Assembly: GCA_038065555.1 (NCBI GenBank)
Contig: JBBTQS010000001.1
Span: 256,741 to 320,740, forward strand
From: Patescibacteria group bacterium
GTDB taxonomy: Bacteria > Patescibacteriota > Patescibacteriia > Magasanikbacterales > JBBTQS01
Direction of reading: 5' to 3'
DNA: 64,000 nt
The notes under the pieces were generated by a model. The model had not been told where the DNA came from and made no database searches. It saw only the letters and a list, made by a program, of their open reading frames with translations. Position 1 is the first letter of the stretch, and each line of letters opens with the position of its first letter. A program made the position numbers and the translations under genes. Shown here piece by piece: positions 21,760 through 50,333 of this stretch.

Positions 21760-21761
21760 AA

Positions 21762-21800
21762 AAGAAAAGACCTTGGGTTACCCTCGGGTCTTTTCTGTTC
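21762..21800 (+). terminator. probable intrinsic terminator
   Basis: Imperfect GACC..GGGTTACCC..GGGTC hairpin followed by TTTTCTGTT immediately after the stop codon. Confidence 0.4.
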
Positions 21801-21860
21801 GAAGTCGGAACACTGCTGCGCTGCGCTATGGCCGCGCGAATGGGGCACAGACCCTTTGCC

Positions 21861-24316: not shown

Positions 24317-27300
24317 TTAAAGCTGTGTGGTCAGAATCGTGTAATTGACGAAGTACGCGTCTGGGACATCGACTACTTTCTTCGCCCAGTCTGCGCCATA
24401 GAGCTCTACAGCACGTGCCTCAGTCGAGACCCACTGCAATGTAGCGTCTGCTGTCACTGCGTAGACCTTCGGAACTGTCGTGATCTTCACGAGGTATGTA
24501 CCTGGCTTGATCGTCATATTCTTGCCGAGCGAGAATGTGGCGAGCTGCTCTGGTGTGATTGTCTTCACCTTGCTGAAGTCCTTGCCATACCAGCTGTGAT
24601 ACACCGCTTCCATAGGGAATGACCGTCGAGTTCCTGATGCGTCAATGTAGTAGACTGCTGTGTTACCGTCGATCTTCACAAGATCGCCCACGCTCAGTCC
24701 AAATGGGATCTGGACACCAGGGACTGGAGTTGTTGGGAGCTTGTCACCCGTAACTGGTGGAGGCGTGACAACGCCGCTTTCTGATGCTGCTGTAACTGTA
24801 ATAGAATCACTTGCAACGGCTGATACCGCACCTGTCGCGCTTGCGAACTTCACATATACTGTCTTGCTTCCATTTCCTGCGCTGAGTGTGAATGCACGTG
24901 AAGTCACGTACGGCTCCCAAACACCTCCAACAAATTCAGGATGTTCGCTCACTGCCATTTCAGATGCACCTGTTGCTGTGAGTTGGAGTACGACGTTGCG
25001 TGATGCTGTTGACGCTGCGTTGGCATTGATGACTACTGTGCCAGCAACTGTTGTTGCGCTTGTAGCACCTGTTGATCCAGATGATCCTTGGCTCAACACA
25101 CTAATCGTTGTGGTTGATGCGTCCGTTGTATTTGTTGCATCCACAAATGCTACCGAAAGCGTTCCGTTACCTGTCATGTCGAGTGTTCCGTCGCCCACTG
25201 ATGCAACGTTGGTACCACGTACCGTGAGCGCACCACGGAAAATTCCTGTTGCAACGCCGGTCTCGGTCATGAGCACTGATTCTGCGTCACCAGTGTTGCT
25301 GTAGAGACGAATCTGGTTAGACCCAGCAGTCATGCTTTCGGACGTTGAGCCATTGAGATTGCCGTCGTCGTCATTTACTTCCACGTAGAGTAGATCTCCT
25401 GCGCGATACGTAATGGTTGATTGCTGTGTACCAGAGCCATCAACAAACCGGAGATACCCATTCGGGTTAATAATTGTTCCTGTTTGTGTCAATGTTCCGC
25501 TGTTGGCGATGCTGCCAACCGCTGGAACCGTGAGATCAACTCCGGTATCTACTACGACAGTTGTTCCTGCTGCAATCGTGAGTGTTCCCATCACTGTCGT
25601 TGTTGCAGTGAATGTGAATGTCTGCCCAGAAGCAGAGATCGTAACATTACCTGGGTATACAAATGTACTTGGCAAGTTACCACTTCCTGTGAAGGCAACC
25701 GTACTTGTTGAAGCAAATCGATACTGGTTGTTTGTGACGGCAATTAATTTTGTTGCATCTGTCGATGCTACCGTAAATGTACCACCATCAACACGGATGT
25801 ACGCAAGAGTTGTTGTAACGCTTGGACGAGTCACTGTGAGTGAGTACCCTGCTGGGATAATCATCGTACTCGAAACAGCGATTTTGCCGAGGTTCATTGT
25901 TCCAGCACTCGCGCCTACTGACTGAAGCGTGCCAGACTGTGTCGTCGAAATCGATGTTGTTGCTGAACCTGCAGTAATCGTTCCCGCTGCAGTCATGAGC
26001 ACATCACCTGCGAAAGTGATTCCAGTAGTTCCGTTAGGCAAAACGATACTCGTTGATGCACCAGTTACAAGGAAGTCATTTGTAACAACCATTGGATCAT
26101 CGAATACATCGAATCGAAGTGTACCTGTCGCAACAGTGAGATTAATGACATCCCAATACCCCATCACATTCGTGAGACTACCACTTGCTGATGTACCAGG
26201 ATAGAGTGTGCCTGATTCCTTACGAATGTATACATCGTAAAACTGTACTGTGGACGAAACAAACTGATCGCCTGTACCATCGAAAATAAATACGTTTTCG
26301 CCTGCTGTAATCGCTGCCGCACCCAGACGTTGGTAGAAGTGCCCACCGACATTGAACTGTCCTGTTCCCCAGAGCAAGCCAATATGCGTCCCTGGATTGC
26401 ACAATCCTGCACCCGATGCTTCGAGTGATAAAGTGCCGTCAGCATCAAGTGTTGCGTTCTTTGTGCGGAAATCTGCGTTACCTTCGGTAACCTTGAGGTG
26501 CGTTGTTGCTAAGCCACCACTCACGATCATTGTTGAAGCACTAGCACACGGGAGTGTTACCTGAAACGTACCAGCAAAAACATGGTTACTCGTTGAAGTT
26601 ACGTAATAAGTTCCAGAATCCTGTGGATCGTAAGAATATGTCGTGCTCACTGTGCTCAGTGTTGCTGATGAACCGATCTGGATATTTCCCTGGAATGTAT
26701 ACGTTGGCGTACCGAGTGCGAGTCCGGCTTGCGCGTTATTTGCGATAGTCAGTGAACCACCTTGTGTCCACGCGATGTTATTTGTTTGGAAATCAAAGAG
26801 TCCTTGTGTAATTGTCGCTGCACAGTACGAGGTCAATGTATCGGATACAAGAATAACACTGTCTGAGGATCCACCTGCTGTATTATTTACTTCAATAGTG
26901 CAGTATGAAGCAGATGAACCTGGTCGGAATGTCTGTGATGCAGCGGTACCACCGAATTCAAGCGCGAACATGTGCGCTTCGTCGAGCGTGAGTGTTCCAC
27001 CGTTGATCATCCAGTCACCCTTCACCGTGGTATCGAGCGCAGGCAAAAAAGTTCCCGAGTTCAACACAAGATCGTCGTTGAATACTGCGGTACCACTATT
27101 AAAAGTAGAAGTAACAGTACCACCTGCGATAGTCATCGCACCTCCGGCCGTCAACGTATATGTTGCAACATTGAATGTACCCGCAGAAATCGTTGATGAT
27201 GCGATTGTAGCGTTGGCACCGAGTGTAATAATACCAGAGTATCCAGATGCAACACGCACTACAAGGTTTGAATAACTCGAGGCAAATGTAGAATCCCAAG

Positions 27301-27523
27301 TTGCATTCGATGTGGATGTGCCGTCGAAGACAATAGTGTCCCCATCTGCAGGTAATGTATTACTATCCCAGTTGGATGCTGTGCTCATGTTACCACTGCC
27401 ATCCCAGGTCTTGGTTGCAGCATGTGTGTCAGCTTGTACACCCACAAACAATGCAAATGCACCTAGGAGCACCCCCGCAGTCCGCAATCCTTGCAACACA
27501 AATGATCTTGTTCCCATACGCAT
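24317..27523 (-). CDS. giant Ser/Thr/Gly-rich cell-surface protein A (beta-helix/Ig-like repeats) with C-terminal about 115-aa shared domain
   Basis: Signal peptide MRMGTRSFVLQGLRTAGVLLGAFALFVGVQA; about 900 aa of T/S/G/A/N-rich beta repeats; C-terminal KPGTYLVKITTVPKVYAV...DVPDAYFVNYT domain homologous to the N-terminus of the 37216-40914 protein. Confidence 0.7.
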   Translation of the reverse strand: MRMGTRSFVLQGLRTAGVLLGAFALFVGVQADTHAATKTWDGSGNMSTASNWDSNTLPADGDTIVFDGTSTSNATWDSTFASSYSNLVVRVASGYSGIITLGANATIASSTISAGTFNVATYTLTAGGAMTIAGGTVTSTFNSGTAVFNDDLVLNSGTFLPALDTTVKGDWMINGGTLTLDEAHMFALEFGGTAASQTFRPGSSASYCTIEVNNTAGGSSDSVILVSDTLTSYCAATITQGLFDFQTNNIAWTQGGSLTIANNAQAGLALGTPTYTFQGNIQIGSSATLSTVSTTYSYDPQDSGTYYVTSTSNHVFAGTFQVTLPCASASTMIVSGGLATTHLKVTEGNADFRTKNATLDADGTLSLEASGAGLCNPGTHIGLLWGTGQFNVGGHFYQRLGAAAITAGENVFIFDGTGDQFVSSTVQFYDVYIRKESGTLYPGTSASGSLTNVMGYWDVINLTVATGTLRFDVFDDPMVVTNDFLVTGASTSIVLPNGTTGITFAGDVLMTAAGTITAGSATTSISTTQSGTLQSVGASAGTMNLGKIAVSSTMIIPAGYSLTVTRPSVTTTLAYIRVDGGTFTVASTDATKLIAVTNNQYRFASTSTVAFTGSGNLPSTFVYPGNVTISASGQTFTFTATTTVMGTLTIAAGTTVVVDTGVDLTVPAVGSIANSGTLTQTGTIINPNGYLRFVDGSGTQQSTITYRAGDLLYVEVNDDDGNLNGSTSESMTAGSNQIRLYSNTGDAESVLMTETGVATGIFRGALTVRGTNVASVGDGTLDMTGNGTLSVAFVDATNTTDASTTTISVLSQGSSGSTGATSATTVAGTVVINANAASTASRNVVLQLTATGASEMAVSEHPEFVGGVWEPYVTSRAFTLSAGNGSKTVYVKFASATGAVSAVASDSITVTAASESGVVTPPPVTGDKLPTTPVPGVQIPFGLSVGDLVKIDGNTAVYYIDASGTRRSFPMEAVYHSWYGKDFSKVKTITPEQLATFSLGKNMTIKPGTYLVKITTVPKVYAVTADATLQWVSTEARAVELYGADWAKKVVDVPDAYFVNYTILTTQL

Positions 27524-27536
27524 TATTATTGGTCGG

Positions 27537-27545
27537 AGTATAGCA
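27537..27545 (-). promoter_or_regulatory. extended -10 promoter TGcTATACT
   Basis: Minus-strand GTGCTATACT 13 nt upstream of the ATG of surface protein A (near-leaderless). Confidence 0.4.
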
Positions 27546-27549
27546 CACT

Positions 27550-28683
27550 TTAGAGTTGTCGGAAAAGTTTTTGCATTCTTTGGGCAATCACTGACCAATC
27601 GAAATTCCTTGCGCGTCGAAGTCCTTCTCCGCGACAGCGCTCTCGCAGTTCGTTATCGCCGCGTAACCGTGTAATTGCCTCTGCGATAGACTGTGGATTA
27701 TTCGGCTCACAGAACACGCCACTCACATCAGACTCCACAATATCTGGGATGCCGCCAACAGGGGTAGCAACAACAGGGATTCCAGCTGCCTGCGCCTCCA
27801 GGAACACATTCCCCAACCCTTCAGAGATCGACGCGCGACAAAATACATCACTCGCATGCAGATATGCAGGCAGATCACGATGGCCAACAGATCCGACGAA
27901 ATGTACTCGCTCACGAATGGATTGCGCCCGCTGTCGCAACACTGGCTCCAGCCCACCACTCCCCACAATTACTACATGCGTGTCCAATGGTAATGCAGCA
28001 CATGCTGCAATCAAATCGCCAACACCATTCTTTTCAACCAACCGAGAAACCGTTATTACAACCCATGCGTCAGCTGGTATTCCGAGTGTTTTTCGCACCT
28101 CGCTGCGCGTTTGCGCCGGTTGTGCAAAATGCGCCACTGCAACGCCATTTGGGATCACCTCTACACGATTGCCCGCATACCCCATCTTCACTGCCCATGC
28201 GCCCAGTGACGAGCTAATCGCATGTATCACTGATGCGCGGCGAAAAATCGCCTGCACCATCCAGAAAAAGCCTCTTGATGCGCGACGAATATGTTCCTCG
28301 CTGTCCCCTTCTTGCACAGACAATACAAAAGGAATCTGTGGACGAAATGCTGCGACAATGCGTGCTGCCAGCCCTCCATAACTCGCCATAATCGCCCAAA
28401 TCGCTTGTACATTACGATGACGAAACGCAATAAGTGGTGCCAAAAGAGGCAATAACACCTTGTCGAGTGCCGCAACACCCACACCAATACGATGCACTTC
28501 CACATTTTCTATGTGTTCGTTTGTCGCGAGTCCTGGCTTGATCCGCGCACAGTAGAGAATCCAACGATACTCAGGAATGCGACGAGTAACCTCTTGTACC
28601 GCAATCTCAGCACCTCCAATAAGCGGCAAATACGCGGTGGAAAAAATCAAAATGGTTTTCTTTGCGTGCACCGCCTGATCCAT
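27550..28683 (-). CDS. glycosyltransferase family 4 (GT-B, GT1/GT4)
   Basis: GT4 N-terminal domain pattern (ILIFSTAYLPLIGGAEIAV) and C-terminal EGLGNVFLEAQAAGIPVV motif. Confidence 0.75.
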   Translation of the reverse strand: MDQAVHAKKTILIFSTAYLPLIGGAEIAVQEVTRRIPEYRWILYCARIKPGLATNEHIENVEVHRIGVGVAALDKVLLPLLAPLIAFRHRNVQAIWAIMASYGGLAARIVAAFRPQIPFVLSVQEGDSEEHIRRASRGFFWMVQAIFRRASVIHAISSSLGAWAVKMGYAGNRVEVIPNGVAVAHFAQPAQTRSEVRKTLGIPADAWVVITVSRLVEKNGVGDLIAACAALPLDTHVVIVGSGGLEPVLRQRAQSIRERVHFVGSVGHRDLPAYLHASDVFCRASISEGLGNVFLEAQAAGIPVVATPVGGIPDIVESDVSGVFCEPNNPQSIAEAITRLRGDNELRERCRGEGLRRARNFDWSVIAQRMQKLFRQL

Positions 28684-28688
28684 ACGTT

Positions 28689-29648
28689 TTATACCTTAGT
28701 CGTCCTGCGAACTTCTTTCTTGAAATAGGCAACTGATTTTTGCAATCCTTCGCGCAATGAGACCTTGGGCTCCCAACCAAGAATCTCCCGAGCACGGGCA
28801 ATATCTGGCTGACGACGACGTGGATCATCTTCGCGTGGCGCGCTGTGTACAACCTCACTACGACTCTTCGTGACAGCCAACACTTCAGCAGCAAGTTCAT
28901 TCACTGTGAACTCAGTGGCGTTACCGAGGTTGATCGGTCCGTGCACATCTGGCGCGCTCGCCATCATACGAACCAACCCGTCAACGAGATCTGAGACATA
29001 ACAAAAACTTCGCGTCTGTGATCCATCACCATCGATGCGAATTGTCGTTCCTTTGATCGCTGACACGATGAAATTACTCACCACGCGTCCATCCTCTAAC
29101 GCCATGTTCGGACCGTACGTATTGAAAATCCGCACCACCTTCACTGGCGCTTGATACTGTCTAATATATTCAAAACACAGCGTCTCAGCGAGACGTTTGC
29201 CTTCGTCGTAGCATGCACGCGGGCCAATCGGATTCACCGAACCCAAATAGGTCTCCGGTTGTGGGTGTACCTCAGGATCTCCATATACTTCTGAGGTCGA
29301 TGCATGCAGGAGCGTCGCACCTTTGGCTCGTGCAAAAGCTAACAGCTGACGAATTCCATCCACGCTCGCAGCAATGGTCTCAAATGGAAATGCAAAATAT
29401 TTTGCTGGTGACGCAGGGCACGCGAGGTTATAAATCTCATGCACAGGCTCTGCAATCTTGAGTGGACGCGTTACATCGTGCTTCTTGAACACAAACGCAC
29501 CAGACTTCGAAAGTCCTCGCAGATTCCGTCGATCGCCGGTGATGAGTGAGTCCACGCCAATGACGCGATGCCCCTGCTCGAGCAAGACGCGCACCAAGTG
29601 ACTCCCGATAAATCCAGCTGCACCAGCGACGACAATGGTTTTTTGCAT
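28689..29648 (-). CDS. UDP-glucuronate decarboxylase / UDP-xylose synthase (NAD-dependent epimerase-dehydratase SDR)
   Basis: GAAGFIGSHLV Rossmann motif, YDEGKR catalytic YxxxK, and FNTYGPNM...DGSQTRSFCYVSDLVDGL typical of UXS/ArnA-decarboxylase type enzymes. Confidence 0.75.
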   Translation of the reverse strand: MQKTIVVAGAAGFIGSHLVRVLLEQGHRVIGVDSLITGDRRNLRGLSKSGAFVFKKHDVTRPLKIAEPVHEIYNLACPASPAKYFAFPFETIAASVDGIRQLLAFARAKGATLLHASTSEVYGDPEVHPQPETYLGSVNPIGPRACYDEGKRLAETLCFEYIRQYQAPVKVVRIFNTYGPNMALEDGRVVSNFIVSAIKGTTIRIDGDGSQTRSFCYVSDLVDGLVRMMASAPDVHGPINLGNATEFTVNELAAEVLAVTKSRSEVVHSAPREDDPRRRQPDIARAREILGWEPKVSLREGLQKSVAYFKKEVRRTTKV

Positions 29649-29717
29649 AGACCCGTTATTCTCTGTATGATGCTAACTACACCATATTTCTTCGCAAAAG
29701 TAAACAAAACACGTTCT

Positions 29718-30878
29718 ATGTCCACCACTCCCCACCCACGTCTCACGGTTGGACTCCTCATTACGCAAGGCCATTGGGGTGGTGCGCAACAATACGTCTT
29801 CGATCTTGCAACGCACCTCGCATCCGAGATGAACGTCGTTGTAGGCATTGGCTCTCCAACACGCGGCCAAGAATTACAACAACGCCTTGCGGCATGGAAT
29901 ACGGCGCATCCCAAATCTCCCATCACCATACAACAACTCACGCATCTTGTGCGCGAGATTTCTCCATTAAAAGACCTTCGTGCGCTTGCTGAAATCAAAA
30001 ACTTCGTTGTACGCAATCACCTTGATATTCTCCACTGCAACAGTGCCAAAGCTACAGTGATCGGTTCATTTGCAACGCGTGCGCTCCCTGTCCGACGCGT
30101 CACAACAGTACATGGATTCACATTCACCGAACCACTTTCCTGGGCACGCAGAGCGTTCTACCGAACACTCGAGCGAATCGCCAGCACCTCTGCACACCTG
30201 CTCATTTGTCCAGATCGCGCATCATACGCCATTGCCAAGGACTCATTCCACATTCCACAATCGCGCCTCGCACTGATTCCACACACACGCACGGACATCG
30301 CGTTCCTTCCACGTGATGCAGCACGTACTGCGCTTGCAAAACACATAGGACACACGATCACAGATCACACCCAAATCATTGGATCAATTGCTAATTTCTA
30401 CAAAGTCAAAAACCAAGCGCTCCTCCTCGAGTCCTTCGCACTCCTCGCACAACAAAATCCCGAAGCCATTTGCATACTCATCGGAGACGGCAGCGAACGC
30501 CAAAACCTAGAGAGTATTCGCACATCACTCCCCTGCGCAAACCGAATTTTCTTCGCGGGTGCAATCGAAAACGCCGCAACACTTCTGCGAGGATTTGAAG
30601 TCTTCGCACTGACTTCAGACAAAGAAGGATACCCATTTGTTCTCCTCGAAGCTCGCGCCGCTGGTATCCCCATTGTTGTGCGCAATATCGGTGGCTGTCC
30701 TGAAATTATAGAAGGGGTGAGCAACGCTAGTAGCGTCACCACCCCCACTCCCACAGCAATTGCTGCGGCACTCACACGCGCACTCGAACAAAATCCTATT
30801 TCACAAACGCGCACATCGAGTGAACTCATGCACAATGCAACGCGTGTACGTTACCATTCTCTAGTCACGAACCAATAA
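29718..30878 (+). CDS. glycosyltransferase family 4
   Basis: GT4 fold; EGYPFVLLEARAAGIPIV motif; start taken at MSTTPHPRL. Confidence 0.7.
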   Translation: MSTTPHPRLTVGLLITQGHWGGAQQYVFDLATHLASEMNVVVGIGSPTRGQELQQRLAAWNTAHPKSPITIQQLTHLVREISPLKDLRALAEIKNFVVRNHLDILHCNSAKATVIGSFATRALPVRRVTTVHGFTFTEPLSWARRAFYRTLERIASTSAHLLICPDRASYAIAKDSFHIPQSRLALIPHTRTDIAFLPRDAARTALAKHIGHTITDHTQIIGSIANFYKVKNQALLLESFALLAQQNPEAICILIGDGSERQNLESIRTSLPCANRIFFAGAIENAATLLRGFEVFALTSDKEGYPFVLLEARAAGIPIVVRNIGGCPEIIEGVSNASSVTTPTPTAIAAALTRALEQNPISQTRTSSELMHNATRVRYHSLVTNQ

Positions 30879-32966
30879 TTCGTAGAACCGAGCCAACTCT
30901 TCATCCTTCACAACCTTTGCAACCTGAATGGCAACCTGACGTGCCTGCTCTGTCATAGTCTCAGGTCGTCGTGTGCGCACTTCTCGGAACATTTCCGCCG
31001 ATGCCACAGCATCATCAAATGCGGCGTAGAGCATCGCTGCGCGCCAATACGACTGACCAACTGCAGGATCAAGTGCAATCGCTTCTTTCATTGCCGCTTC
31101 AGCCGCGGGCTTGTTACGCAGCACCAACTGCGCCTGCGCTACTTCATACAGGAGCTGCTGACGTTTGGGTGAAAGTGCCCGCGCCTGCTCTAACACCTGC
31201 AATACCATGAACTGACGAGCCGCATTGTTGGTAATAATCGCTTCCTGCTGCAACATCTGTGCGCGCAACACCGCGATACGCAATTCAAAAGGACGCTTTT
31301 GCAACTGCGCTTCTAAGTCAGGCAATACCACTGTGTAGGTTTCGGAGTGCAACGACTTGGCGAGCGCAGTTGACGCTTGTGTCGCTGCATTCAGGAACCG
31401 AACAAGTGCCGTTGCGAACTCGCGAGTAATATCATCGTCGTGCGGCGATTGATACGACTTCGCCTGTGCATACAACCGCATTGCTTCTCGTGTGAGTGGA
31501 ACTGCTTGTTGTGGGTTCTGGTTGGACCCAGCCAACATGAGATGCTGCAACGCGAGCAATGTTGACGCGTTTGCCTGCGCCGTACGCACATTTCCTTGAT
31601 AGATGAGCAGCACAGCAACAAGTACAGCGACAATCGCCACACCTGGCGCAGCGGTTCGCGTCGGCGACAATCGTGGGAGCTCCTGCTCACCCAACGCACT
31701 GCGCCGATCAATATAGGCAAGCAATACGAACCACGCGAGATACGAAGTCACATTATCGAACACAAAGAGATTGTGCACGAAATACGCAACCAGGAACATC
31801 TGCAACACGAGTGACTCTTCCCACGATTCCTTCCCAATGCGCACAGCACCAATATACGCGCACACGAAGAGCGCGAGGTATGCGACAAGCCCCACAACCC
31901 CCTGTGTCGTTAACGTATTGAAGACAATGTTATGGGCGTTATCAAACCACGTTTCTGAATCTCCAAACCGCAAGAATTCTGGATCAAAGTGTTCATTAAA
32001 TGCAAAGTAGAAGGTGTTGAGCCCCCATCCTTGGACCGGATGTTCCTTCCACGCCTCAATCGCCACGCTCCACGTCATAATACGCGTTCGCCCCGTACCC
32101 TCAGTCAACGACAAATGCGTCATGCGATTAAGGAATGGCTGGTTACGTATGACCGTGGTATCTCGAGCCAACCAGAGCCCTGCGAGCAACACTACAAACC
32201 CAACGCACGCAGCAAGTGTCCATTTGCGCACACGAGCATCCACCCCCTTCCGGAACAACACCAGGAGCATTCCCACAACAACAGCAACCGCCACACCAAT
32301 CATCGTACCGCGTGTCTTGGTCGGCAAAATTGTCGCAAGCGCAATCACACCTGAGATCGCCCACACCCATCGTAACTCGTTCGACTTCTCCTTCACCCAC
32401 AACACCGCGGCAATCGAAGCCAAGAACAGTGCATATCCACTCACATAGATCGTGTTGCCGAGCGTCGAACGCACGCGATCGCTCCCCTCATTGAGCAAAA
32501 AAAGTGGATTGCTCACCTGCAACCATGCAATCAACACAAATGGGAGGCCAATAATCAGAATCCAAATGAATAACGCACGCCATTCCTTCCACGTTCGGAA
32601 CACCTGACGACTCACGAAGTACAACGCAACATAATGAAAAATTGTGTACAAACCAAGCATGCGCTCATGATTGTCCCAGAGACTGCGACGCACATCCACA
32701 CTCCAAACCGTAGAGAGAATACCCGCCAAGATGAACCCAAGCACCGCATACAAAATCGGCGTACGTCGAATCTGCGAACGCTCAGTTGCATACAGCGCTA
32801 TATACCAAGCATACACCGCCGCAAGCAGTGTAATCATGACGCGCAAGAACAACACCTTTGGAACCACAAACGGAAACACGTACGATGCCGTTGTAACAAT
32901 CAGCGGTGTAATGAACGTGAGCGCTACACCAATTTGCAATATCCGCGTCAAAACTCGATGAGACAT
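30861..32966 (-). CDS. O-antigen ligase (Wzy_C) family membrane protein fused to C-terminal TPR repeats (paralog 1)
   Basis: about 12 TM helices with the Wzy_C core (ILPTKTRGTMIGVAVAVVVG) and a large periplasmic loop, then about 250 aa of TPR-like helical repeats. Confidence 0.65.
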   Translation of the reverse strand: MSHRVLTRILQIGVALTFITPLIVTTASYVFPFVVPKVLFLRVMITLLAAVYAWYIALYATERSQIRRTPILYAVLGFILAGILSTVWSVDVRRSLWDNHERMLGLYTIFHYVALYFVSRQVFRTWKEWRALFIWILIIGLPFVLIAWLQVSNPLFLLNEGSDRVRSTLGNTIYVSGYALFLASIAAVLWVKEKSNELRWVWAISGVIALATILPTKTRGTMIGVAVAVVVGMLLVLFRKGVDARVRKWTLAACVGFVVLLAGLWLARDTTVIRNQPFLNRMTHLSLTEGTGRTRIMTWSVAIEAWKEHPVQGWGLNTFYFAFNEHFDPEFLRFGDSETWFDNAHNIVFNTLTTQGVVGLVAYLALFVCAYIGAVRIGKESWEESLVLQMFLVAYFVHNLFVFDNVTSYLAWFVLLAYIDRRSALGEQELPRLSPTRTAAPGVAIVAVLVAVLLIYQGNVRTAQANASTLLALQHLMLAGSNQNPQQAVPLTREAMRLYAQAKSYQSPHDDDITREFATALVRFLNAATQASTALAKSLHSETYTVVLPDLEAQLQKRPFELRIAVLRAQMLQQEAIITNNAARQFMVLQVLEQARALSPKRQQLLYEVAQAQLVLRNKPAAEAAMKEAIALDPAVGQSYWRAAMLYAAFDDAVASAEMFREVRTRRPETMTEQARQVAIQVAKVVKDEELARFYELLVRD

Positions 32967-32976
32967 ACCGGCAAAA

Positions 32977-35196
32977 TTATTGGTCAAGTTCTTTAAGAAA
33001 TTGTTCTGCACCTTCACGATACGACGGATCCAACTCTATAGCACGAAGCGCTGCGTGACGAGCTTCAGCCTTGCGTCCCACCTGCCCATACGCAAGAGCA
33101 AGGCGTGACCACCACAGAGGCTCCAGTGGCAACTGCTGCACGACGATCTCATACAGATCCACGAGTCGATCATGCTTTTGCTTTTCCACCAGCACACGCG
33201 TCACCACTTCAACTTGCGCAGCAGTCTCGAACTGAAATCGCATATCCATTGCACGTTCCACATGCATGAGTCCCTCGTCAACAGTTGCTGGATCACTCAA
33301 AAGCGGGAACCCGTAATACCAATGCACCAACACCGTGTCCCCCGCCCGCTGAAGTGCCTCCTTCATCACGCGCGTTGCCTCGTCTTTTCGCTCCAGAGCC
33401 AACAACGCTTGTGCTTGAAGCAAATACCCTTCTTCGCGACTCGGACTCAGCGCCGTTGCTTCGCGGAAATACGCAAGTGCCCGCTCCAACAACGCCGTAT
33501 CATTACGCAATACTCCTACTTGATACTCCATTTTCCCAGCCATTACAATCAGGAGAACCGTACGAGGCTGTGACGCAAGAATTTCCTCAAGATTCGCCCT
33601 CACCCACGCAATATCCTTGTCAAACCATGCACGCACTTCCGGAGTCAACCCCTCAAGCGAATTATCCTTCGAATTGCCATGCACCATATCTGTCACCGAA
33701 CCAGCAGTCCAACGCCAACGCTCGAATTGATACGGCGTGTACCATGCATACGCATAATACAAATACTCACGCGCCCCACTCCAATTCCCCACATACGACA
33801 GTTGCAAACCATAGTTGGTCATTGATGCAGAAATAAGCGGAGTAATACTACCCCACAATACCGCAACACCAATAACAGCAGTACTCATCCAAAGTACAAC
33901 TTGCGGCACACGCCACGCATTACCCGCACGCCCAATCGCTAATCGCTGTTCCTGTGCTAACACCAACCCAACAAGCAACGCCACCGGCAAATACGTCCCT
34001 GGATTCTCGAACAAAAACACCATTTGGCCCAGATGCCCCACCCCTACTCCCACCAGAACTGCAACGAGCCCCGGACTCCACACATCCTCACATCGCGCTC
34101 GTATAAGCACACGAACCAGGCACACAACCACCGCAACAAATGCCACGAGACCCACAACACCACTGGTCGCCATGAGCTCCAGCACGTGACTGTGCGGCTT
34201 GTCGACATAGGACTCCACAAATGCAATTTCCGAAAGCGCGGGATTATAGAATGCATCACTCACCCGACGATAATTCTCCGGACCCCACCCAAAGATTGGC
34301 CGACCAAGGAATCCATCCCACGCCACACCCCAGTTAATTGCACGAGTAGAGAGCGACGTAACGCCCAGTAGACTTGTTGCCCACCCTCGAACCGCTGAAG
34401 ATTGTGTAAACACAAGCCCGGCCACAACTATCATGGCACCAACCACCCCCACGCCCCACAACACAACTGCGCGAGTAATTCGTTGTCGCTGCAACACAAT
34501 CCACACTCCCATTCCAGCAACAACTCCAGCAGCCAGACCAACATATGTTCCACGTGCCTGAGCCATAATCAACGCAACTGCCGCGAGCACCACGAACACT
34601 CCAGCAATCCCACGCCAGCGTCGTCGGTCCTGCGCAATAATCACCCCCGCAATACCAAGATGAAGCAATAGGTACGATGCAAAAAGCACAGGATTACCAA
34701 GTGTACTTCCAATACGCACCGCCGAAACATTTGGAACAAGCGACGGGAACCACCACTGCAAAATACCAACGACAGCAACAACACTCGCCGCCCACACACT
34801 CACGCGCAATACCCGAGCTCGCGATTCAGCTGAAAAAAGTGGCGAAGCAAACACCAAGAGCGCACCCAAAATGTGCAACTGATACCACAACCCCGTCGAG
34901 CGAGCCATATCACTCCACAGACTCTGCCACCAATCCACCCCAACTACCGCGCACAACAACTGCACGACAAAGAAGACTACAATAGCGATCAGAAGCGGCG
35001 ACCAACGCAACCGCAACGACGGCTCACGATACCACACCCACACACTCGCCCCAACCATCACAGATACAACCGTCTGCAATACCATCGCCTGCACAAAGGA
35101 CAGTGGATACAAAGACAATGGAAAGTAAAACAGCGGCACCCACACCAACACATACGCACACCACAGTATCACCCGATGTAACATCTTAGTACTCAT
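32977..35196 (-). CDS. O-antigen ligase (Wzy_C)-TPR fusion membrane protein (paralog 2)
   Basis: Same architecture as paralog 1; RPIFGWGPENY motif; C-terminal TPR region. Confidence 0.65.
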   Translation of the reverse strand: MSTKMLHRVILWCAYVLVWVPLFYFPLSLYPLSFVQAMVLQTVVSVMVGASVWVWYREPSLRLRWSPLLIAIVVFFVVQLLCAVVGVDWWQSLWSDMARSTGLWYQLHILGALLVFASPLFSAESRARVLRVSVWAASVVAVVGILQWWFPSLVPNVSAVRIGSTLGNPVLFASYLLLHLGIAGVIIAQDRRRWRGIAGVFVVLAAVALIMAQARGTYVGLAAGVVAGMGVWIVLQRQRITRAVVLWGVGVVGAMIVVAGLVFTQSSAVRGWATSLLGVTSLSTRAINWGVAWDGFLGRPIFGWGPENYRRVSDAFYNPALSEIAFVESYVDKPHSHVLELMATSGVVGLVAFVAVVVCLVRVLIRARCEDVWSPGLVAVLVGVGVGHLGQMVFLFENPGTYLPVALLVGLVLAQEQRLAIGRAGNAWRVPQVVLWMSTAVIGVAVLWGSITPLISASMTNYGLQLSYVGNWSGAREYLYYAYAWYTPYQFERWRWTAGSVTDMVHGNSKDNSLEGLTPEVRAWFDKDIAWVRANLEEILASQPRTVLLIVMAGKMEYQVGVLRNDTALLERALAYFREATALSPSREEGYLLQAQALLALERKDEATRVMKEALQRAGDTVLVHWYYGFPLLSDPATVDEGLMHVERAMDMRFQFETAAQVEVVTRVLVEKQKHDRLVDLYEIVVQQLPLEPLWWSRLALAYGQVGRKAEARHAALRAIELDPSYREGAEQFLKELDQ

Positions 35197-37073
35197 AGTA
35201 TCGGAAAACGTGTTCCAAGAGCCTCACCATCGCGCTTCACTTCTTCAGCTTTTTCTGGCTGATCAGCAACACGATACGCAAGATACAAATACAGATACGT
35301 CTCGCGAACACCTGGAGCATCAGCACGCACTGCCTCAAGACGTGTGATAGCATCCGCAACACGATTTGTACCAATCAAGAACTCACTCTCCGCATACGCG
35401 GGATACGGATGACGAGGTGCCAACGCCTGCGCTTGTGCAAATGTTCGCTGTGCCAAATCTATCCAATCATTCCCATTACTCTGCGCTTGTTGCGCATAGA
35501 ACTGTGCGAGGAGATATGTTCGATAGAACCGAGTTCCGTCCTGCGTACACCGCGGTGCAGCTCGCTCCAGATCACGCGCCGTGCGCACACGAATATCAGC
35601 AGCTATACGATCACTCCCCGCAACTGCCACCCACGTTTGCATCGCCTTCTCCCACAACACACACGATGCAGGCACAGCATCATCTGCACTGCGCGTGACC
35701 TCTTCCATCCACGGGAACCAGCGCCCTGCGGCACGCGCATCCTCCGCACGAGTGTACGACGCAAATGCGCTCATCTGCGCCACAACACCATACAAACTCC
35801 ACACAACCAACACTCCTGCAACGCCAATCACCGCACGGTGTCGAACATTCGCCACAGGCAATACCTTGCGTACTCGTGGCACCGCGATCACACTTCCCAC
35901 AATGATCCAAAAAAACGCTGCGACAATCGGTTGCTCCGGTGTGAACAAAAGATACATCCCATACGCACCCACCATTCCAAATAACGCTGGCGACACACGC
36001 CATGCAATCAACAACACCATAGCAAACAACGCAATCCACACAACAAGTCCAACAATACCCATCTCCACAGCAACCATCAATACTGCGTTATGCGCGTCAT
36101 CGTTGAACGCCTCACTTCCTGCATACACCAGACTCTCAGGATTGAACCGTGCAGCAAACACTTCAGGATACGCGCCCCGTCCCCACCCAAACCATGGTCG
36201 ATCCTGAATCCCCTCCCACGCACCACGCCACTGCAACAATCGCGTCTGCGATGTCACTGCCGACGGAGCAATCTGCAATGCTCGTGGCACACCCCAGGAG
36301 GCTGGAACAAATTGCAGCGCAACAAAGAGCAACACAATGGCACCAACACCACCCCCGATACGCAGTGCCCGAACGCGCTCCATATGCGCAACCATCCACA
36401 AACTCGCCATGACTATTCCTACAATCAATCCTAGCAATCCAGCACGACTATCCGTTGCAACAAGCGCACTCACTTGCACCAACGCTGCAGCAATCCACCA
36501 TCCACGAACAGCCGCATGGGCACGTACATACGCTATACCCGTTGCCCCCAATGCAACGAGCAAAAATCCAGCAAGAAATGAAGCATTTCCAAAACTTGAA
36601 ATTACACTTCCAGTCGATCCAATCCACACCCATCCAGGGAATACATTTCCCAACCAACCCAGTACTGCCACAACAACCCCCATTCCAGCAATCACACGCA
36701 CCAATCGATCGCGCCACACCTGCGTACACAATGATACCGCCAACAATGACCCACCAACTGCATGCACCCAAATCCACCATCCATTTGCACGTAACAGCGA
36801 TCCCCATCCGACCATTTCTCCACCCCGCGTCGCAATACCAAGTAACACCAGATACCCCAACACAATCCACCACAAATACTTGCTCATCCGCGCAGAACCG
36901 AGGTCAGCGTCAACATGAACACCTCGGCGCATCTGCGTAATTACAACCCAAAGAAATCCCAAATCCAAAAGCCCCATCATTGCCAACACCTTTGGTGTCA
37001 AATGCGCCTCAGGCAACGATGGCGCCACCAACAATGGCACACTTACCGCAAGTACAATAAGAAAAATACCCAT
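35193..37073 (-). CDS. O-antigen ligase (Wzy_C)-TPR fusion membrane protein (paralog 3)
   Basis: Same architecture; DRPWFGWGRGAY motif; 4-nt overlap with paralog 2. Confidence 0.65.
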   Translation of the reverse strand: MGIFLIVLAVSVPLLVAPSLPEAHLTPKVLAMMGLLDLGFLWVVITQMRRGVHVDADLGSARMSKYLWWIVLGYLVLLGIATRGGEMVGWGSLLRANGWWIWVHAVGGSLLAVSLCTQVWRDRLVRVIAGMGVVVAVLGWLGNVFPGWVWIGSTGSVISSFGNASFLAGFLLVALGATGIAYVRAHAAVRGWWIAAALVQVSALVATDSRAGLLGLIVGIVMASLWMVAHMERVRALRIGGGVGAIVLLFVALQFVPASWGVPRALQIAPSAVTSQTRLLQWRGAWEGIQDRPWFGWGRGAYPEVFAARFNPESLVYAGSEAFNDDAHNAVLMVAVEMGIVGLVVWIALFAMVLLIAWRVSPALFGMVGAYGMYLLFTPEQPIVAAFFWIIVGSVIAVPRVRKVLPVANVRHRAVIGVAGVLVVWSLYGVVAQMSAFASYTRAEDARAAGRWFPWMEEVTRSADDAVPASCVLWEKAMQTWVAVAGSDRIAADIRVRTARDLERAAPRCTQDGTRFYRTYLLAQFYAQQAQSNGNDWIDLAQRTFAQAQALAPRHPYPAYAESEFLIGTNRVADAITRLEAVRADAPGVRETYLYLYLAYRVADQPEKAEEVKRDGEALGTRFPIL

Positions 37074-37124
37074 AGAAAATACTACACACCACTATACCCC
37101 GACACACCCCGCTCTGTTAAGAGC

Positions 37125-37170
37125 CACACAATAACAAAACCCCCCAGTTTCCCGGGGAGTTTTGTTTTGG
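37125..37170. terminator. intrinsic terminator CAAAACCCCC-AGTTTCCC-GGGGAGTTTTG for surface protein B gene
   Basis: 11-bp stem (one G-U) with T/U tracts on both sides, 50 nt after the stop of the 37216-40914 gene. Confidence 0.5.
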
Positions 37171-37215
37171 ATGAGGTCATTCCTCTTGCGAGGAAGCCGC
37201 AACCGCTAACCTAGA

Positions 37216-40200
37216 TTAGTAGGTAAGCGTCTTGCCAGAGAATGGCAAGCCACCGAGACCGGAAGCTGTTGGCTTGAGGTCGTAGATAGCTGCGGTGTAA
37301 CCGTCAGTCCAAGTAATACCGCTCACAGCTGTCGAGCCACCGGAGGTACCTCCAACAGCGAGACCGATCGTGAGAGTATTGTTCGAAGCTGCGTCATCCG
37401 TGTCCATCGTGACGATAACCGTCTTGCTGGAACCAGATGGGACTTCCAAATCGGTGAAGGAAGCTTCAGCGATGTTGGTGTCATCCATCGAGCTGCCCAA
37501 GTCGCCAGACGAGAGCGTACTTACGTACGAAGTCGAAGCGAGGAGGTTACCCGAAGAGATGCTGTCCTTGTAGATCTTGATTTCACGAGCAGCGTGAGCA
37601 GCAGCTGCGGAGATCGAGGTGTCAACCTTGAGGTTGAGCAACTTGATCGTAGCGGACTGGTTGTTCACGTTTGCTGGGTTAGTGAAGACCCACTTAGCAA
37701 CTGTCTTGTCGTCACCCTTCGAAGTAGCGCCTGATGGTGCGTCCGAAGCGTGAGCGATGCTCAAGTTAGCCTTGAGAGGGTGCTTTGCCGTAGCAACAAT
37801 GCGCATGCTGTCGCCGGTCAAACCAGTGAAGGTTGTGATCGAAGCGCCAGATTCTGCACCGCGTGCAACGATAGAAGCGGAGTTGCTGCTGTCATAGCCG
37901 TACAAGAGACCTGCGAAGAACGTAGAGCTCGAGAAGCTATCTGGCGAACCAGTGATGTCAGCAACAAGGCGAAGCGTCTTGCTCGAGTTCTTTGGAACTA
38001 CGAGGTTAAGACCAGTGAACGTAGCGTACGCGGTCGAGGTTGCATATACAGCCGTCGAAGTCGCGCTTGCTGTTGCAAGGCTTGATACTGCGGAACCAAC
38101 CATTGTGTCACCGTCCATAAGGCGGAGGTTGCCAACAACACCAGTGGTGCTGGTAGCGAACAACGTCATGATGGATGGGGTGAGCTCGCTGATTGTCACG
38201 CCTTCTTCCTTACCTGCAGAGAACTTGAAGCGTCCAAGTTCAACGTCGGTGGAACCCATCGTTACGTAGTGCTCAGCTGTAGAGTCTGAAGCAAGAGCAA
38301 CGGTGAGAGAGCCAGACGATGCAACGTAAACGTTCTGGAGACCTGCGGACAAGGTAGCGGTACCACTCTGAGACGTCTCAAGTGTCTGGTAGGACACAGA
38401 AGATGGGTAGAGAATACCGTTCGTGTCTGCATTGATGTTTGCGCTAGAACCACCGGTCACGTCAGCAAGTACATCAACTACGTACGTCTCACCCTTTGCG
38501 AGCACGATAGGTGTCGTGAGGGTGTAGTCGTATGTGTCGGATGCGCCTGTTGTCAACGTGCCCTTAACGCCCGCGATGTCAGCACCATTGTGCTGGAGGC
38601 GGAGGTTGGAGAAGACTGCAGAGAGACCACCAGTTACATCAGCCTTTACGGTGATGTTGGTAATCTTTGCACCTTCGCCAGATCCTGCCTTTACCACGAA
38701 CGAGCTGATGCGTGCACTCTTGGTGCTCGATACAGCAGTTGGGTTCACAGAGCTACCATCAGCAACCGTCAAGTTCTCAGACAAAGTCGGAACTGACGAT
38801 GCGAAAGTAAGGCTGTAAGCCGTAGCAGCAGCAGTGCTGATCGACGTAAGAGAGGTCTTAGCCTGAGCGTTAGCAGAGCCAGCGCGGACTACAACCTGTA
38901 CTGTGTCGCCAGCCACAACCGAAGTATCGGTGGTGTCAGCAGTAACTACGAGCTTGCCAGTCGTACCTGGGGTCACAACAAAGTTGTTGGAGAACGTGTA
39001 GTCTGCGTCCAAGCTGGTGTTGTTACCAGAGGTCGAAGAAGCTACAGCTGTACCAACCTGTACACCGTTAAGGAAAAGCTTAACGTTCTTGTACGCGTTG
39101 TTGGAGGATCCTGCGAGGTAGAGAGACATGCTGTCAACCTTCACAGCTTCACCAGCTGCAACGAGGTCAAACGTTGCGAGGTTGACGCCAGTAGCGCCAG
39201 TCGCAATGTTGTTCTTCGTTGATTCGGTAGCTGGAGTGATTGTGAGCGTACCTGTGTTGATCGTCGTCTGTGCGGTGGTCTGAATGGAGAACGCCGTCGT
39301 ATTGAGGGTTACCACTGGAGCGTACACACCGTACTGAAGATCCCATGCAGTTACATCATTTTCTTCCTGAACCGAGAACTGGAAGTTACGGTTGGTACCG
39401 CCAACTACTGTTCCGTAGAGGTCCAAGAACTTCGACTGACCAGCAGTGATCTTGAGACCACCGTCTGCAGAGTTGGTGAAGTCGAACGTGAGCTTGTTGT
39501 TTCCAAGATCAGCGTACGTTGCACCAAACTGCGTGCCAGCAACAGTCAACTTGATGTTCTTGATGTCGGAAGCGCTTACCGAACCAATCTGTGTGAAGGT
39601 AATACGCTTCACAAGGAGGTTCTGATCTGTAGCAAGGATCTTGAACTTAGCAAGTTCCTTGTCTGCAGATGCGTTTGCATCCATGGTTGTAGCAGATACT
39701 GGGGACGATGTAGCAACCTGGAGATAGCCGAGGTCAGTGACCGTAGCAATCGTCATGTTGTTTCCAACAGCCGAACCAGATGCTGCACCGGACTTCACTT
39801 CAGCAGCGTTCACGGTAAAACCAACGGTTGTACCAGTGCTTGCTGACTTGTTGATGTTTGCCTTCACCCAAATGGTCTTGGTCTGGCCAGCTGGAACGGT
39901 GAAAATACCGTTCGAGTTGCTCCAGGTTACCTTGCCGCTCGAGATAGAAGAGGACTCTGCAAGAATAGTCTCGCCGTCCATGAGCATTACTTCATCAACA
40001 TCGCTGTCCTTCGAGATACCTGTGCGAGTTGCAGTAACCATAGTTACTACAGCCTCTGCACCCACTGCGGAGAAGCGTACAGCCGTCATTGGGGCCATGC
40101 GCTGTCCGAGCGTAGCGCTAGCTGTTGTGTCAACCACAACGGAACCAGCTGCTGGTGTAGCGGAGTCGAGCGAAATTGTCAACGTCGTTGGAGCTGTTGG

Positions 40201-40914
40201 CGAGACTGGCGTACCGCCTGTCTGTGCCGTGTCTGCAACGTCGCTAGCGCCAAGAGCTGAACCAGCGGTCAAGCCAGCGAGAGATCCAGTTACAACGAAC
40301 TTCGTGTTGAAGTGGTTGCTTGTGAATGCTGCATCGCTCACCATGCGCTTCATGTTGCCCTCAACGTAGTACTTAGAAGCTCCGTCCATCACAACTGCAC
40401 CTGTTGGGTACACGCCTGCTGTAGCAAGCTCTGCACCAGTGGTGTAGTTCGTGAAGAATGCGTCTGAGACGTCGATTACCGACTTGCCCCAGTTAGCACC
40501 CCAAAGAGACTTAGCAACTTCTTCGGTCTTTACCCAGCGCAATACGCCCTTAGGCTCTACTGCGTATACCTTTGGATCCGTCGTGATTTTCACGAGGAAG
40601 GTACCAGGGCGCACTACAATGTTTCCTGCAAGTGGTACTGCTGCCAATTCGTCAGCCGATACCACGGTTACGCCGTTGAAGTTTGGATACCAAGCTTCAA
40701 AGGTCTTTTGTGACGGGAAGGTGTAGCGGCCGTTATTCATGTAGTAGTACACCGTCGAGAGATCCGCACGCTTGATCAACATTCCGTTGGTCAAGGTTGC
40801 TGCTGAAGCGGTCAATGGGGCTACCATTGCTGCAAATCCAACAGCCCAGAGGATCGTCGCGGTCGCTACTACATACGTAGCGGACTGCTTCACCATTCTC
40901 ACTGCATCTGTCAT
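37216..40914 (-). CDS. giant cell-surface protein B (S-layer-like, tandem Ig-like/beta-sandwich repeats) with N-terminal about 115-aa shared domain
   Basis: Signal peptide ...ILWAVGFAAMVAPLTASAA; N-terminal RPGTFLVKITTDPKVYAV...DVSDAFFTNYT domain homologous to the C-terminus of protein A; about 1000 aa of S/T/A/G/V-rich repeats. Confidence 0.7.
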   Translation of the reverse strand: MTDAVRMVKQSATYVVATATILWAVGFAAMVAPLTASAATLTNGMLIKRADLSTVYYYMNNGRYTFPSQKTFEAWYPNFNGVTVVSADELAAVPLAGNIVVRPGTFLVKITTDPKVYAVEPKGVLRWVKTEEVAKSLWGANWGKSVIDVSDAFFTNYTTGAELATAGVYPTGAVVMDGASKYYVEGNMKRMVSDAAFTSNHFNTKFVVTGSLAGLTAGSALGASDVADTAQTGGTPVSPTAPTTLTISLDSATPAAGSVVVDTTASATLGQRMAPMTAVRFSAVGAEAVVTMVTATRTGISKDSDVDEVMLMDGETILAESSSISSGKVTWSNSNGIFTVPAGQTKTIWVKANINKSASTGTTVGFTVNAAEVKSGAASGSAVGNNMTIATVTDLGYLQVATSSPVSATTMDANASADKELAKFKILATDQNLLVKRITFTQIGSVSASDIKNIKLTVAGTQFGATYADLGNNKLTFDFTNSADGGLKITAGQSKFLDLYGTVVGGTNRNFQFSVQEENDVTAWDLQYGVYAPVVTLNTTAFSIQTTAQTTINTGTLTITPATESTKNNIATGATGVNLATFDLVAAGEAVKVDSMSLYLAGSSNNAYKNVKLFLNGVQVGTAVASSTSGNNTSLDADYTFSNNFVVTPGTTGKLVVTADTTDTSVVAGDTVQVVVRAGSANAQAKTSLTSISTAAATAYSLTFASSVPTLSENLTVADGSSVNPTAVSSTKSARISSFVVKAGSGEGAKITNITVKADVTGGLSAVFSNLRLQHNGADIAGVKGTLTTGASDTYDYTLTTPIVLAKGETYVVDVLADVTGGSSANINADTNGILYPSSVSYQTLETSQSGTATLSAGLQNVYVASSGSLTVALASDSTAEHYVTMGSTDVELGRFKFSAGKEEGVTISELTPSIMTLFATSTTGVVGNLRLMDGDTMVGSAVSSLATASATSTAVYATSTAYATFTGLNLVVPKNSSKTLRLVADITGSPDSFSSSTFFAGLLYGYDSSNSASIVARGAESGASITTFTGLTGDSMRIVATAKHPLKANLSIAHASDAPSGATSKGDDKTVAKWVFTNPANVNNQSATIKLLNLKVDTSISAAAAHAAREIKIYKDSISSGNLLASTSYVSTLSSGDLGSSMDDTNIAEASFTDLEVPSGSSKTVIVTMDTDDAASNNTLTIGLAVGGTSGGSTAVSGITWTDGYTAAIYDLKPTASGLGGLPFSGKTLTY

Positions 40915-41081: not shown

Positions 41082-42293
41082 TTATTCTTGTACGTTTGGA
41101 GTCGTACTTGGAATCTGTATTGTACTGCTCACGGTAGTAGACGCAGCAGGAGTGATTTCGATACTCTTTGTGGTTACTGGTGTGAGTGGTACTGCTAATT
41201 TTGCAGCAGCATCCACGTCCATGGCAGCTTGTTGCACAATCTTTGCTTGCGCGGTTACCTCCATCGTCGCAGGTCCGAGCACTCGAATCTGCAGTGCCGC
41301 TGCTGCGACATTATCCTCTTCGAGCAATACCTTGGTCTTTGCTACAACTTCGCGCACTTCTTCGCTCTTGCGTTGTACCTGCATTGCAGGAGCAATCACC
41401 TTGGATTTCTCAGCTACCATGCTCGGCTGAAGTGGAGATGCTTGCACGGATTTCACTGCGCCATTCACGTCCTCTGTTGCACCTGCAACCTTTGATTCAA
41501 TTTCCAACAATTTCTTGTCTACAATTTGTCGTACTTCATCCTTTGAGATTGCATCGTTCCCTTTCGCAAGTGAATCTACATACACCTCAACAGTCTTCAC
41601 ACTCGTCACACCCACTGCAGCCTCTGCTGCAATGACAGCGTCTTTCACACTGTCGTCCCCTGCTACTTCTGCGAGTACTTTTGCTTGATCAATCTGCACG
41701 AGATAACGAGTTGCATGAACGTCCATGGATTTTGCAATATCTACCGCAGTAACTGAGTCAGAATTCTTGAGATGTTCGAGTGTTGCATTCACCTCGGTCA
41801 TGCTGTCCTTGAATCGCTGCACCGCTTCCATCGCTTTTTCTGGTTCTGCAATTACTTTTTGTGCTTCGTCGAGGCGTCGGGTTGCGTATTCAGCTTGCAG
41901 CTGTGTCTTGGCCGATGTTCCTTGCGTAGCGCCTACAACAGCAACTGTAGTGTTCTCAATACCAATCTTCACTGGATACCAGACATCTCCCGGCACACTA
42001 TTGAGCGAAGCAAATGCACCAGTCACCCACGATCCTGTTGCAATACCGAAGGCAACACCCATGAGCACAATTGGACGAACCACGGCATACACAGTGCGTG
42101 GTGGGATGAAAATAGACAACAAAAGCCACATGTTCGCAAAGGAGAACATGCGAACGCGTGGCGTGGAACCAGTATTAGACAACGTCGAGAGAAGATGCTC
42201 ACGCGTTGCATGCACAAACGCCGCACGTGGATTGATATTTCCACGAACGTCATTGAGCTGATGTAAGTTGTGGCGCAACTGTCGACGGGTCAT
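41082..42293 (-). CDS. putative anti-sigma factor / membrane-anchored helical protein (DUF5667-like)
   Basis: Directly downstream of the ECF sigma gene; single TM (IVLMGVAFGIATGSWVTGAF), then a long Ala/Val/Lys/Glu-rich helical extracytoplasmic domain. Confidence 0.45.
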   Translation of the reverse strand: MTRRQLRHNLHQLNDVRGNINPRAAFVHATREHLLSTLSNTGSTPRVRMFSFANMWLLLSIFIPPRTVYAVVRPIVLMGVAFGIATGSWVTGAFASLNSVPGDVWYPVKIGIENTTVAVVGATQGTSAKTQLQAEYATRRLDEAQKVIAEPEKAMEAVQRFKDSMTEVNATLEHLKNSDSVTAVDIAKSMDVHATRYLVQIDQAKVLAEVAGDDSVKDAVIAAEAAVGVTSVKTVEVYVDSLAKGNDAISKDEVRQIVDKKLLEIESKVAGATEDVNGAVKSVQASPLQPSMVAEKSKVIAPAMQVQRKSEEVREVVAKTKVLLEEDNVAAAALQIRVLGPATMEVTAQAKIVQQAAMDVDAAAKLAVPLTPVTTKSIEITPAASTTVSSTIQIPSTTPNVQE

Positions 42294-47972: not shown

Positions 47973-48071
47973 CGTACGACGTTCGACGAATGATTGCGTG
48001 ACGGAACGAGAGATGCGCAGCGCGTGCATATGCGTGCAGTATATCACAAACTAAACACCTCGAACCCAAAA

Positions 48072-50268: not shown

Positions 50269-50321
50269 ATCTCTTCTCCCGGGCCACTTGGACCCTTGCT
50301 CAAGAAATCGCTTTCGAGGGC

Positions 50322-50333
50322 TGACACATGTCA
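50322..50333. promoter_or_regulatory. perfect 12-bp palindrome TGACACATGTCA in the 5' UTR of the Cys-rich lipoprotein gene
   Basis: Inverted repeat TGACA-CA-TGTCA about 55 nt upstream of the start codon; candidate operator. Confidence 0.3.

Follow-up and report, generated by a model that had tools for sequence, protein, structure and literature searches.

We analysed a 64-kb window (the whole stretch of 64,000 nucleotides, positions 256,741 to 320,740 of contig JBBTQS010000001.1 in assembly GCA_038065555.1) of a Patescibacteria group bacterium, in which two large reverse-strand genes encode secreted surface proteins, here designated A and B, that share a segment at opposite termini: the C-terminus of A and the N-terminus of B, following its signal peptide. 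Both sequences quoted for this segment in an initial annotation of the DNA were found in the window as described there, and the pairwise alignment it proposed as a check is significant, with 54 identities over 120 residues (45%), 64% positives and two gaps (BLASTP with composition-based statistics, E=2e-33). Searching the whole window with either segment (tblastn) returned two strong copies (E~5e-30) and one weak third at 21589..21846, and no similarity between A and B was detected by BLASTP outside the shared segment. Because neither Pfam nor NCBIfam has a model matching the segment, the statement that it is not a named domain holds for these two libraries. Protein A is acidic and rich in Thr, Gly, Ala and Ser, and its likely real start is Met26 (nt 27523). 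Protein B, which is 100% identical to NCBI 'hypothetical protein AAB384_01515 [Patescibacteria group bacterium]', is acidic, with an isoelectric point (pI) of 4.98, contains no Cys and has a composition dominated by Thr, Ala, Ser and Val; its predicted signal peptide was recognised in the sequence by a basic n-region, hydrophobic core and A-x-A site. The description of both proteins as repeat-rich finds no support at the sequence level, since they contain neither DNA tandem repeats nor internal repeats detectable by BLASTP.

The shared segment, initially taken for a single domain of about 115 residues, is a tandem of two related units of about 58 residues each (u1 and u2), to which B and most relatives add a third (u3). 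Profile comparison with hhalign aligns u1 with u2 at E=2.9e-5 over 55 columns and u1 with u3 at a probability of 94.6%, and the three units can be aligned in a single register. Family alignments define a unit pattern consisting of G.L[IV]K, VYY and G.[KR]R.[FI] motifs, a helix, V..[VI] and a second helix ending in G.N[VI]; u2, with its RPGT.LVKITTDPKVYAVE core, is the most conserved stretch of the family. We refer to the tandem as the module and to the remainder of any protein carrying it as the passenger. Since u3 follows directly upon u1 and u2, the module of B spans about 180 residues. No u3 is encoded downstream of A, where the stop codon is followed by a hairpin and an unrelated open reading frame (ORF). 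Copy number per protein varies within the window: A has a pair of units, B a triplet and a neighbouring C39-like peptidase, which matches Pfam C39_2 at residues 53-183, a single one. This single unit is covered in full by a generic unit hidden Markov model (HMM) built by leave-one-out (27.9 bits, i-E=8e-8), and it matches the B segment at E=0.003 with tblastn. Coordinates are given in Table 1.

Table 1. Location of the module units, their host genes and other annotated features in the window.
Feature	Position	Strand	Remarks
Protein A	24317..27598	-	1093 codons from TTG; two-unit module at extreme C-terminus
A u1 (aa 968-1028)	24515..24697	-	unit-HMM E=7.4e-28
A u2 (aa 1029-1090)	24329..24514	-	unit-HMM E=4.4e-32; stop 3 residues on
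Protein B	37216..40914	-	1232 aa; three-unit module at mature N-terminus
B predicted signal peptide (aa 1-38)	40801..40914	-	inferred by eye from sequence; ends ...PLTASA, followed by AT
B u1 (aa 41-99)	40618..40794	-	unit-HMM (hmmsearch) E=1.2e-25; predicted three strands, helix, strand, helix
B u2 (aa 100-163)	40426..40617	-	unit-HMM E=1.1e-36; RPGT.LVKITTDPKVYAVE core
B u3 (aa 166-221)	40252..40419	-	unit-HMM E=1.4e-9; more divergent third unit
Single unit, C-terminus of Peptidase_C39_2 protein	21586..21750	+	gene 20914..21759
DUF5667 protein	41082..42293	-	Pfam; directly upstream of B
ECF sigma factor	42305..42877	-	Pfam; upstream of B
Three Wzy_C (O-antigen-ligase-like), two GT4, NAD epimerase	27550..37073	- (one GT4 on +)	Pfam; between B and A
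tRNA-Gln(CTG) gene	5835..5908	+	
tmRNA gene	57542..57935	+	tag peptide ANVYSRVKNSIASAFAMPSFAPVAA

The profile searches of other genomes suggested in the initial annotation returned thousands of relatives: among 1.84 billion representative proteins, clustered at 50% identity, the family comprises 6109 clusters at E<=1e-3 and 2791 at E<=1e-30, and a scan of species-representative genomes located module loci in at least 558 species genomes. Named records are almost all from Patescibacteria (Falkowbacteria, Magasanikbacteria, Uhrbacteria, Parcubacteria and Absconditabacterales). Every listed relative with a name given by its source is a 'hypothetical protein', and of 120 listed homologues of B none has been named by function, while a Pfam domain is present in just one. 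In a sequence set that includes the best 150 matches, the u1-u2-u3 triplet lies just after the signal peptide in 131 proteins, mostly of 1100-1300 residues and thus B-like in size, and at the C-terminus in 17. A metagenome scan seeded with the C-terminus of A showed the two-unit form to be frequent as an independent architecture: it is located N-terminally in small proteins, sometimes encoded by three adjacent genes, or at the very C-terminal end, where 1-4 residues follow it, exactly as in A. The family as a whole is very common in metagenomes. These architectures identify the pair of about 120 residues as a genuine mobile module and u3 as an addition typical of the B lineage. The modularity initially proposed is borne out by hundreds of unrelated passengers that carry the module at one terminus or the other. 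These comprise typical extracellular domains (Big_1, Big_5, Big_7, Big_12, cohesin, CarboxypepD_reg) and a glycoside-hydrolase-like region, and Big_1, Big_5, Big_12, Cohesin and CarboxypepD_reg are found preceding C-terminal modules.

Some record titles deserve comment. Many records titled 'uncultured Gammaproteobacteria bacterium' (CAY and CAZ accession series; L001-L003 and many others among our loci) carry Patescibacteria-type loci, and in L001 the module is 93% identical and the gene order is that of the window; the Gammaproteobacteria label is probably a placeholder or an error. Two module-bearing contigs labelled 'Halanaerobium sp.' and 'Bacteroidales', both below 5 kb, look like binning contaminants.

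AlphaFold prediction, another check put forward with the initial annotation, was performed with AlphaFold2 on family alignments and yielded confident models (predicted local distance difference test, pLDDT, 89-93), with a pLDDT of 89.3 and a predicted template-modelling score (pTM) of 0.67 for two units, and 92.8 and 0.87 for three. Because the addition of u3 raises the pTM from 0.67 to 0.87, the three units appear to pack as one rigid body. Each modelled unit consists of four strands and two helices in the order strand-strand-strand-helix-strand-helix. Structure searches with Foldseek gave a sole consistent match: the top 10 PDB hits of the two-unit model and the top 11 of the three-unit model are all EccB1, EccB3 or EccB5, versions of a core component of the ESX (type VII) secretion system (PDB 4KK7, 3X3M, 5EBD, 5CYU and 7NPS, in their repeat domains R1-R4), with a best E of 2.8e-4 and probabilities of 0.90-0.98. 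The EccB1 repeats are described as 50-57 residues long, with a four-stranded sheet and two helices, and as bearing a weak resemblance to PlyCB, a phage protein that binds the wall (PMC4769845). EccB repeats thus parallel the module in being tandem units of about 50-58 residues with four strands and two helices on an extracytoplasmic protein, and short in-register echoes are discernible in a VYY..dG.r..i hairpin and a V..V...EL...P.G helix. The two systems differ in overall design, EccB having an N-terminal transmembrane helix and a central core with four repeats, and A and B a signal peptide, two or three units and no core, as well as in their hosts, which are Actinomycetota for EccB and Patescibacteria for the module. 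A Pfam scan found no relevant match to the EccB family in A or B at E<=1, and no ecc genes (eccC/eccD/mycP linkage) among the annotated neighbours of A and B. Among viral models, the best matches are uncharacterised actinophage proteins (E=2e-5).

In a separate comparison, the unit HMM matched designed or PQQ-like beta-propellers (E down to 5e-9) solely through a 'VYA.dpdG' hairpin; the models, with two helices per unit and just two or three units, do not show the six to eight four-stranded blades of a propeller.

Domain exchange in homologues of B provides a first line of evidence on function. Five of 116 full-length homologues have no recognisable units at a strict threshold. One of them, P0274, aligns to residues 248-1232 of B with 34% identity (E=4e-135) and carries at the position of the module a PG_binding_1 domain (PF01471; 41 bits, cutoff 23); a weaker PG_binding_1 match occupies the same position in P0286 (19.7 bits, under the cutoff of 23). 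The other three (P0282, P0285 and P0291) show divergent unit-like sequences there, in the form of a repeat, 'DVYIVK..G.KKFKRL[IV]LNPQVFNSYGHLKW..V', that has no Pfam match and is mostly missed by strict unit HMMs, apart from one weak u3 match in P0282 (E=1.7e-4); it probably represents a sister subfamily of the module unit.

Association with wall-active enzymes provides a second. The u1-u2 pair is found at the extreme C-terminus of Peptidase_M23 proteins of about 340 residues (L098 and L103 in the scan, with L104-L106 of the same size and layout), and in another protein, at L103:562-4110, it is followed by PG_binding_1 (48.5 bits). M23 enzymes are peptidoglycan endopeptidases, and those of the lysostaphin type carry a wall-targeting domain at their C-terminus. 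The C39-like peptidase of the window, with its single appended unit, belongs to this line of evidence. The module is also basic and its passengers acidic (pI 8.7 versus 4.7 in B, and 8.1 versus 4.2 in A), and in 100 of 102 B homologues its identity exceeds that of the passenger (median 47.9% versus 35.4%). Together, these comparative observations agree with an exposed, variable protein held by a conserved anchor. The analysis establishes the repeat anatomy, the family size and taxonomic range, the predicted fold and the domain combinations; wall binding, the ligand and a place for B as a major envelope protein are inferences. We consider it probable, with moderate confidence, that the module is a non-covalent cell-wall-targeting element. 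A secreted, non-catalytic tandem of alpha/beta units would in this case bind the wall of the producing cell itself, through peptidoglycan or a wall-linked glycopolymer, holding large acidic surface proteins such as A and B in place and likewise wall-remodelling enzymes (M23 and C39-like peptidases). Its role would be that of SLH or CWB2 triplets, SH3b or PG_binding_1 in other monoderm bacteria. Among the functions initially suggested (anchoring, cell-wall binding or partner recognition), cell-wall binding is best supported by the comparative evidence, and mutual recognition of A and B is not favoured.

Among the genes surrounding A and B, as annotated with Pfam, are a pair for an ABC-2 exporter beyond A, as well as three more family 4 glycosyltransferase (GT4) genes and another Wzy_C gene located upstream of the gene for the extracytoplasmic function (ECF) sigma factor. 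Of 80 related genome loci, 66 have a sigma gene upstream of the B-like gene and 22 a DUF5667 gene; in at least 32, Wzy_C-type genes occur within 8 kb of the B-like gene, mostly just downstream. The conserved order is ECF sigma factor, DUF5667 protein, B-like protein (about 1200 aa) and Wzy_C-type membrane proteins, and the near-identical locus L001 shares it. The DUF5667 protein may be an anti-sigma partner; no paper mentioning DUF5667 was found in the literature searched. The region as a whole resembles, in its predicted gene content, a surface-glycan or protein-glycosylation locus, which is compatible with, and no proof of, a glycopolymer ligand or a role for B as an S-layer-like (surface-layer-like) glycoprotein. 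Four Wzy_C proteins (30861..37073 and 46563..48047, both on the reverse strand), one of them fused to TPR repeats, and six GT4 genes lie in one 17-kb stretch, an unusually dense set of glycan polymerases and ligases for a small genome.

Established wall-binding families offer a frame for comparison. SLH and CWB2 triplets of Gram-positive bacteria consist of two or three short tandem repeats located N- or C-terminally on S-layer-like and wall-active proteins, and the module resembles SLH (PF00395) and CWB2 (PF04122) in architecture and probable role. For A and B the likeness extends to a conserved basic anchor, a variable acidic passenger and adjoining genes for glycopolymer synthesis. The predicted fold differs: SLH repeats, of about 55 residues, are helical and the CWB2 unit is larger, whereas the fold of the module is mixed beta/alpha. 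Pfam reports no SLH match in the module, the model of which is beta-rich, and no significant match to CW_binding_2 (PF04122), LysM, SH3b, SPOR or choline-binding repeats in A, B or 59 isolated units, beyond single-unit noise such as Choline_bind_3 at E=0.008 in one of the 59. PG_binding_1, a three-helix bundle, is likewise without a Pfam match in A or B and is unrelated to the module in sequence, even though it takes its place in P0274 and P0286 and adjoins it in L103.

Several results weigh against wall targeting, or against the structural relationships that would support it. P0274 has a gene neighbourhood different from that of B and is therefore a homologue rather than a proven orthologue, and the domain co-occurrence is compatible with a peptidoglycan, glycopolymer or protein ligand alike. 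The similarity to EccB is local, with template-modelling (TM) scores of 0.24-0.41 and a different global arrangement. Module and unit profiles compared with eight plasmid-borne EccB proteins reach hhalign probabilities of just 1-2.3%, and the unit HMM matches PDB EccB1 chains at E values of 0.005-0.007, ranking below the clearly spurious beta-propeller matches. The likeness to EccB is hence one of predicted fold only, with no confirmation from sequence profiles. Weak single-unit matches to CHAP, amidase and lysozyme proteins of phages have E>0.1, as do those to other endolysin binding domains such as that of LysIME-EF1 (6IST). PlyCB, the wall-binding subunit of the streptococcal phage lysin PlyC, is absent from the Foldseek lists of both module models, and its link to the module is second-hand, via EccB; wall binding by the EccB repeats themselves has been advanced as a hypothesis only (PMC4769845).

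Four other explanations were considered. Chance or compositional similarity with no domain behind it has a negligible probability, being refuted by an E value of 2e-33 under composition correction, by the thousands of homologues and by the confident models. It is unlikely that the module binds the wall or surface glycans of a host, as phage lysin binding domains do. Patescibacteria are mostly epibionts, the fold occurs in phage proteins (weak lysin matches included), the walls of a host are a conceivable target of the M23 and C39-like enzymes, and the passengers are Ig-like or beta-helix-like domains of the adhesin type. Host-recognition parts are, however, usually distal and variable, and the module is both the most conserved part of otherwise fast-evolving proteins and, directly following the signal peptide as it does, their wall-proximal end. 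It is moreover conserved in at least 558 species genomes, the hosts of which would be expected to differ.

Partner recognition or oligomerisation, whereby the C-terminal pair of A might dock on the N-terminal triplet of B, form a lattice or bind another envelope protein, would account for a module at opposite termini of two proteins encoded about 10 kb apart. It would also agree with the three-gene tandem arrays of module proteins (L092, L094 and L096) and with the documented packing role, in the type VII machine, of the EccB repeats, the sole structural relatives. We nonetheless judge it rather unlikely: N-terminal forms outnumber C-terminal ones so greatly (131 versus 17) that no 1:1 partner pattern emerges, few of the 80 loci contain a second module gene within 8 kb of the B-like gene, and a wall ligand fits better with a module that is carried by small M23 and C39-like enzymes and exchangeable for PG_binding_1. 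Even less probable is a structural spacer, or an aid to secretion or folding devoid of a specific ligand, in which the module would act as a rigid stalk between membrane or signal peptide and passenger. The compact, rigid three-unit model (pTM 0.87) and the structural role proposed for EccB (PMC4769845) would suit such a function, which leaves unexplained the extreme C-terminal placement in A and in the M23 enzymes, the exchange with PG_binding_1 and the basic charge on acidic passengers.

The novelty claimed for the segment holds in part: it has no Pfam or NCBIfam model, and no paper describing it was found in the literature searched, but it is a pair or triplet of small repeats, the predicted fold of which matches the known EccB repeat domain, and not a new fold of about 115 residues. 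We accordingly rate the family as new in the sense of an unnamed and very abundant set of putative wall-targeting repeats in Patescibacteria, with a predicted EccB-repeat-like fold. Much of bacterial diversity belongs to the Patescibacteria, or candidate phyla radiation (CPR), nearly all of which have yet to be cultured and whose cell envelope is barely characterised; to our knowledge no wall-anchoring domain had previously been recognised in these poorly known bacteria. The module marks thousands of their secreted proteins, including the B-type proteins of about 1200 residues with an ECF sigma operon and the peptidoglycan peptidases, and with a name for it many 'hypothetical proteins' could be recognised as wall-associated. 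It could also provide a handle for labelling or capturing Patescibacteria cells, for instance with fluorescent module fusions, and the ligand hypothesis bears on the unproven wall binding of EccB repeats in mycobacterial type VII secretion. As a sequence-family discovery, the module should be useful to those who study CPR envelopes or curate domains.

A broader synthesis, which we put forward as doubtful in its entirety, would make the three-unit module the principal envelope anchor of a large Patescibacteria clade (Magasanik-, Falkow- and Uhrbacteria and relatives) and B its S-layer or major coat protein. The module would then join SLH and CWB2 as a third class of S-layer anchor with three repeats, one that evolved independently, with units sharing ancestry with the actinobacterial EccB repeats, a ligand in a glycopolymer of the wall for which the adjacent GT4/Wzy_C/ABC-2 genes are responsible, and expression under a conserved ECF-sigma/DUF5667 switch.

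Other parts of the window hold further features. Positions 48000-54000 form an island with a guanine-plus-cytosine (GC) content of 0.57-0.61, compared with about 0.51 elsewhere, with ORFs at 48586..50334 and 50659..52092, both on the reverse strand. The island encodes a 582-aa Cys-rich lipoprotein-like protein (MKKLVVVLAAMFMGAC...) with many 'DDG.PCT.D.C..G.C' repeats and, next to it, a 477-aa protein in which a signal peptide and a coiled coil are combined with a C-terminus like that of outer-membrane proteins, ending in ...GVRF; neither protein has a Pfam or NCBIfam match. Such an island is surprising in a monoderm Patescibacteria genome, and it may have been horizontally acquired. At 5953..10878, on the reverse strand and at a low GC content of 0.45-0.46, lie genes for an AcrB-type RND transporter (766 bits) and a HlyD-like membrane-fusion protein, a tripartite-pump-like pair that one would not expect where an outer membrane is believed to be absent. 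Near the start of the window, an 835-aa protein encoded on the forward strand (957..3464) contains VirD4/TraG-type coupling-protein domains (T4SS-DNA_transf, TrwB_AAD_bind), a hint that an element for conjugation or type IV secretion lies there.

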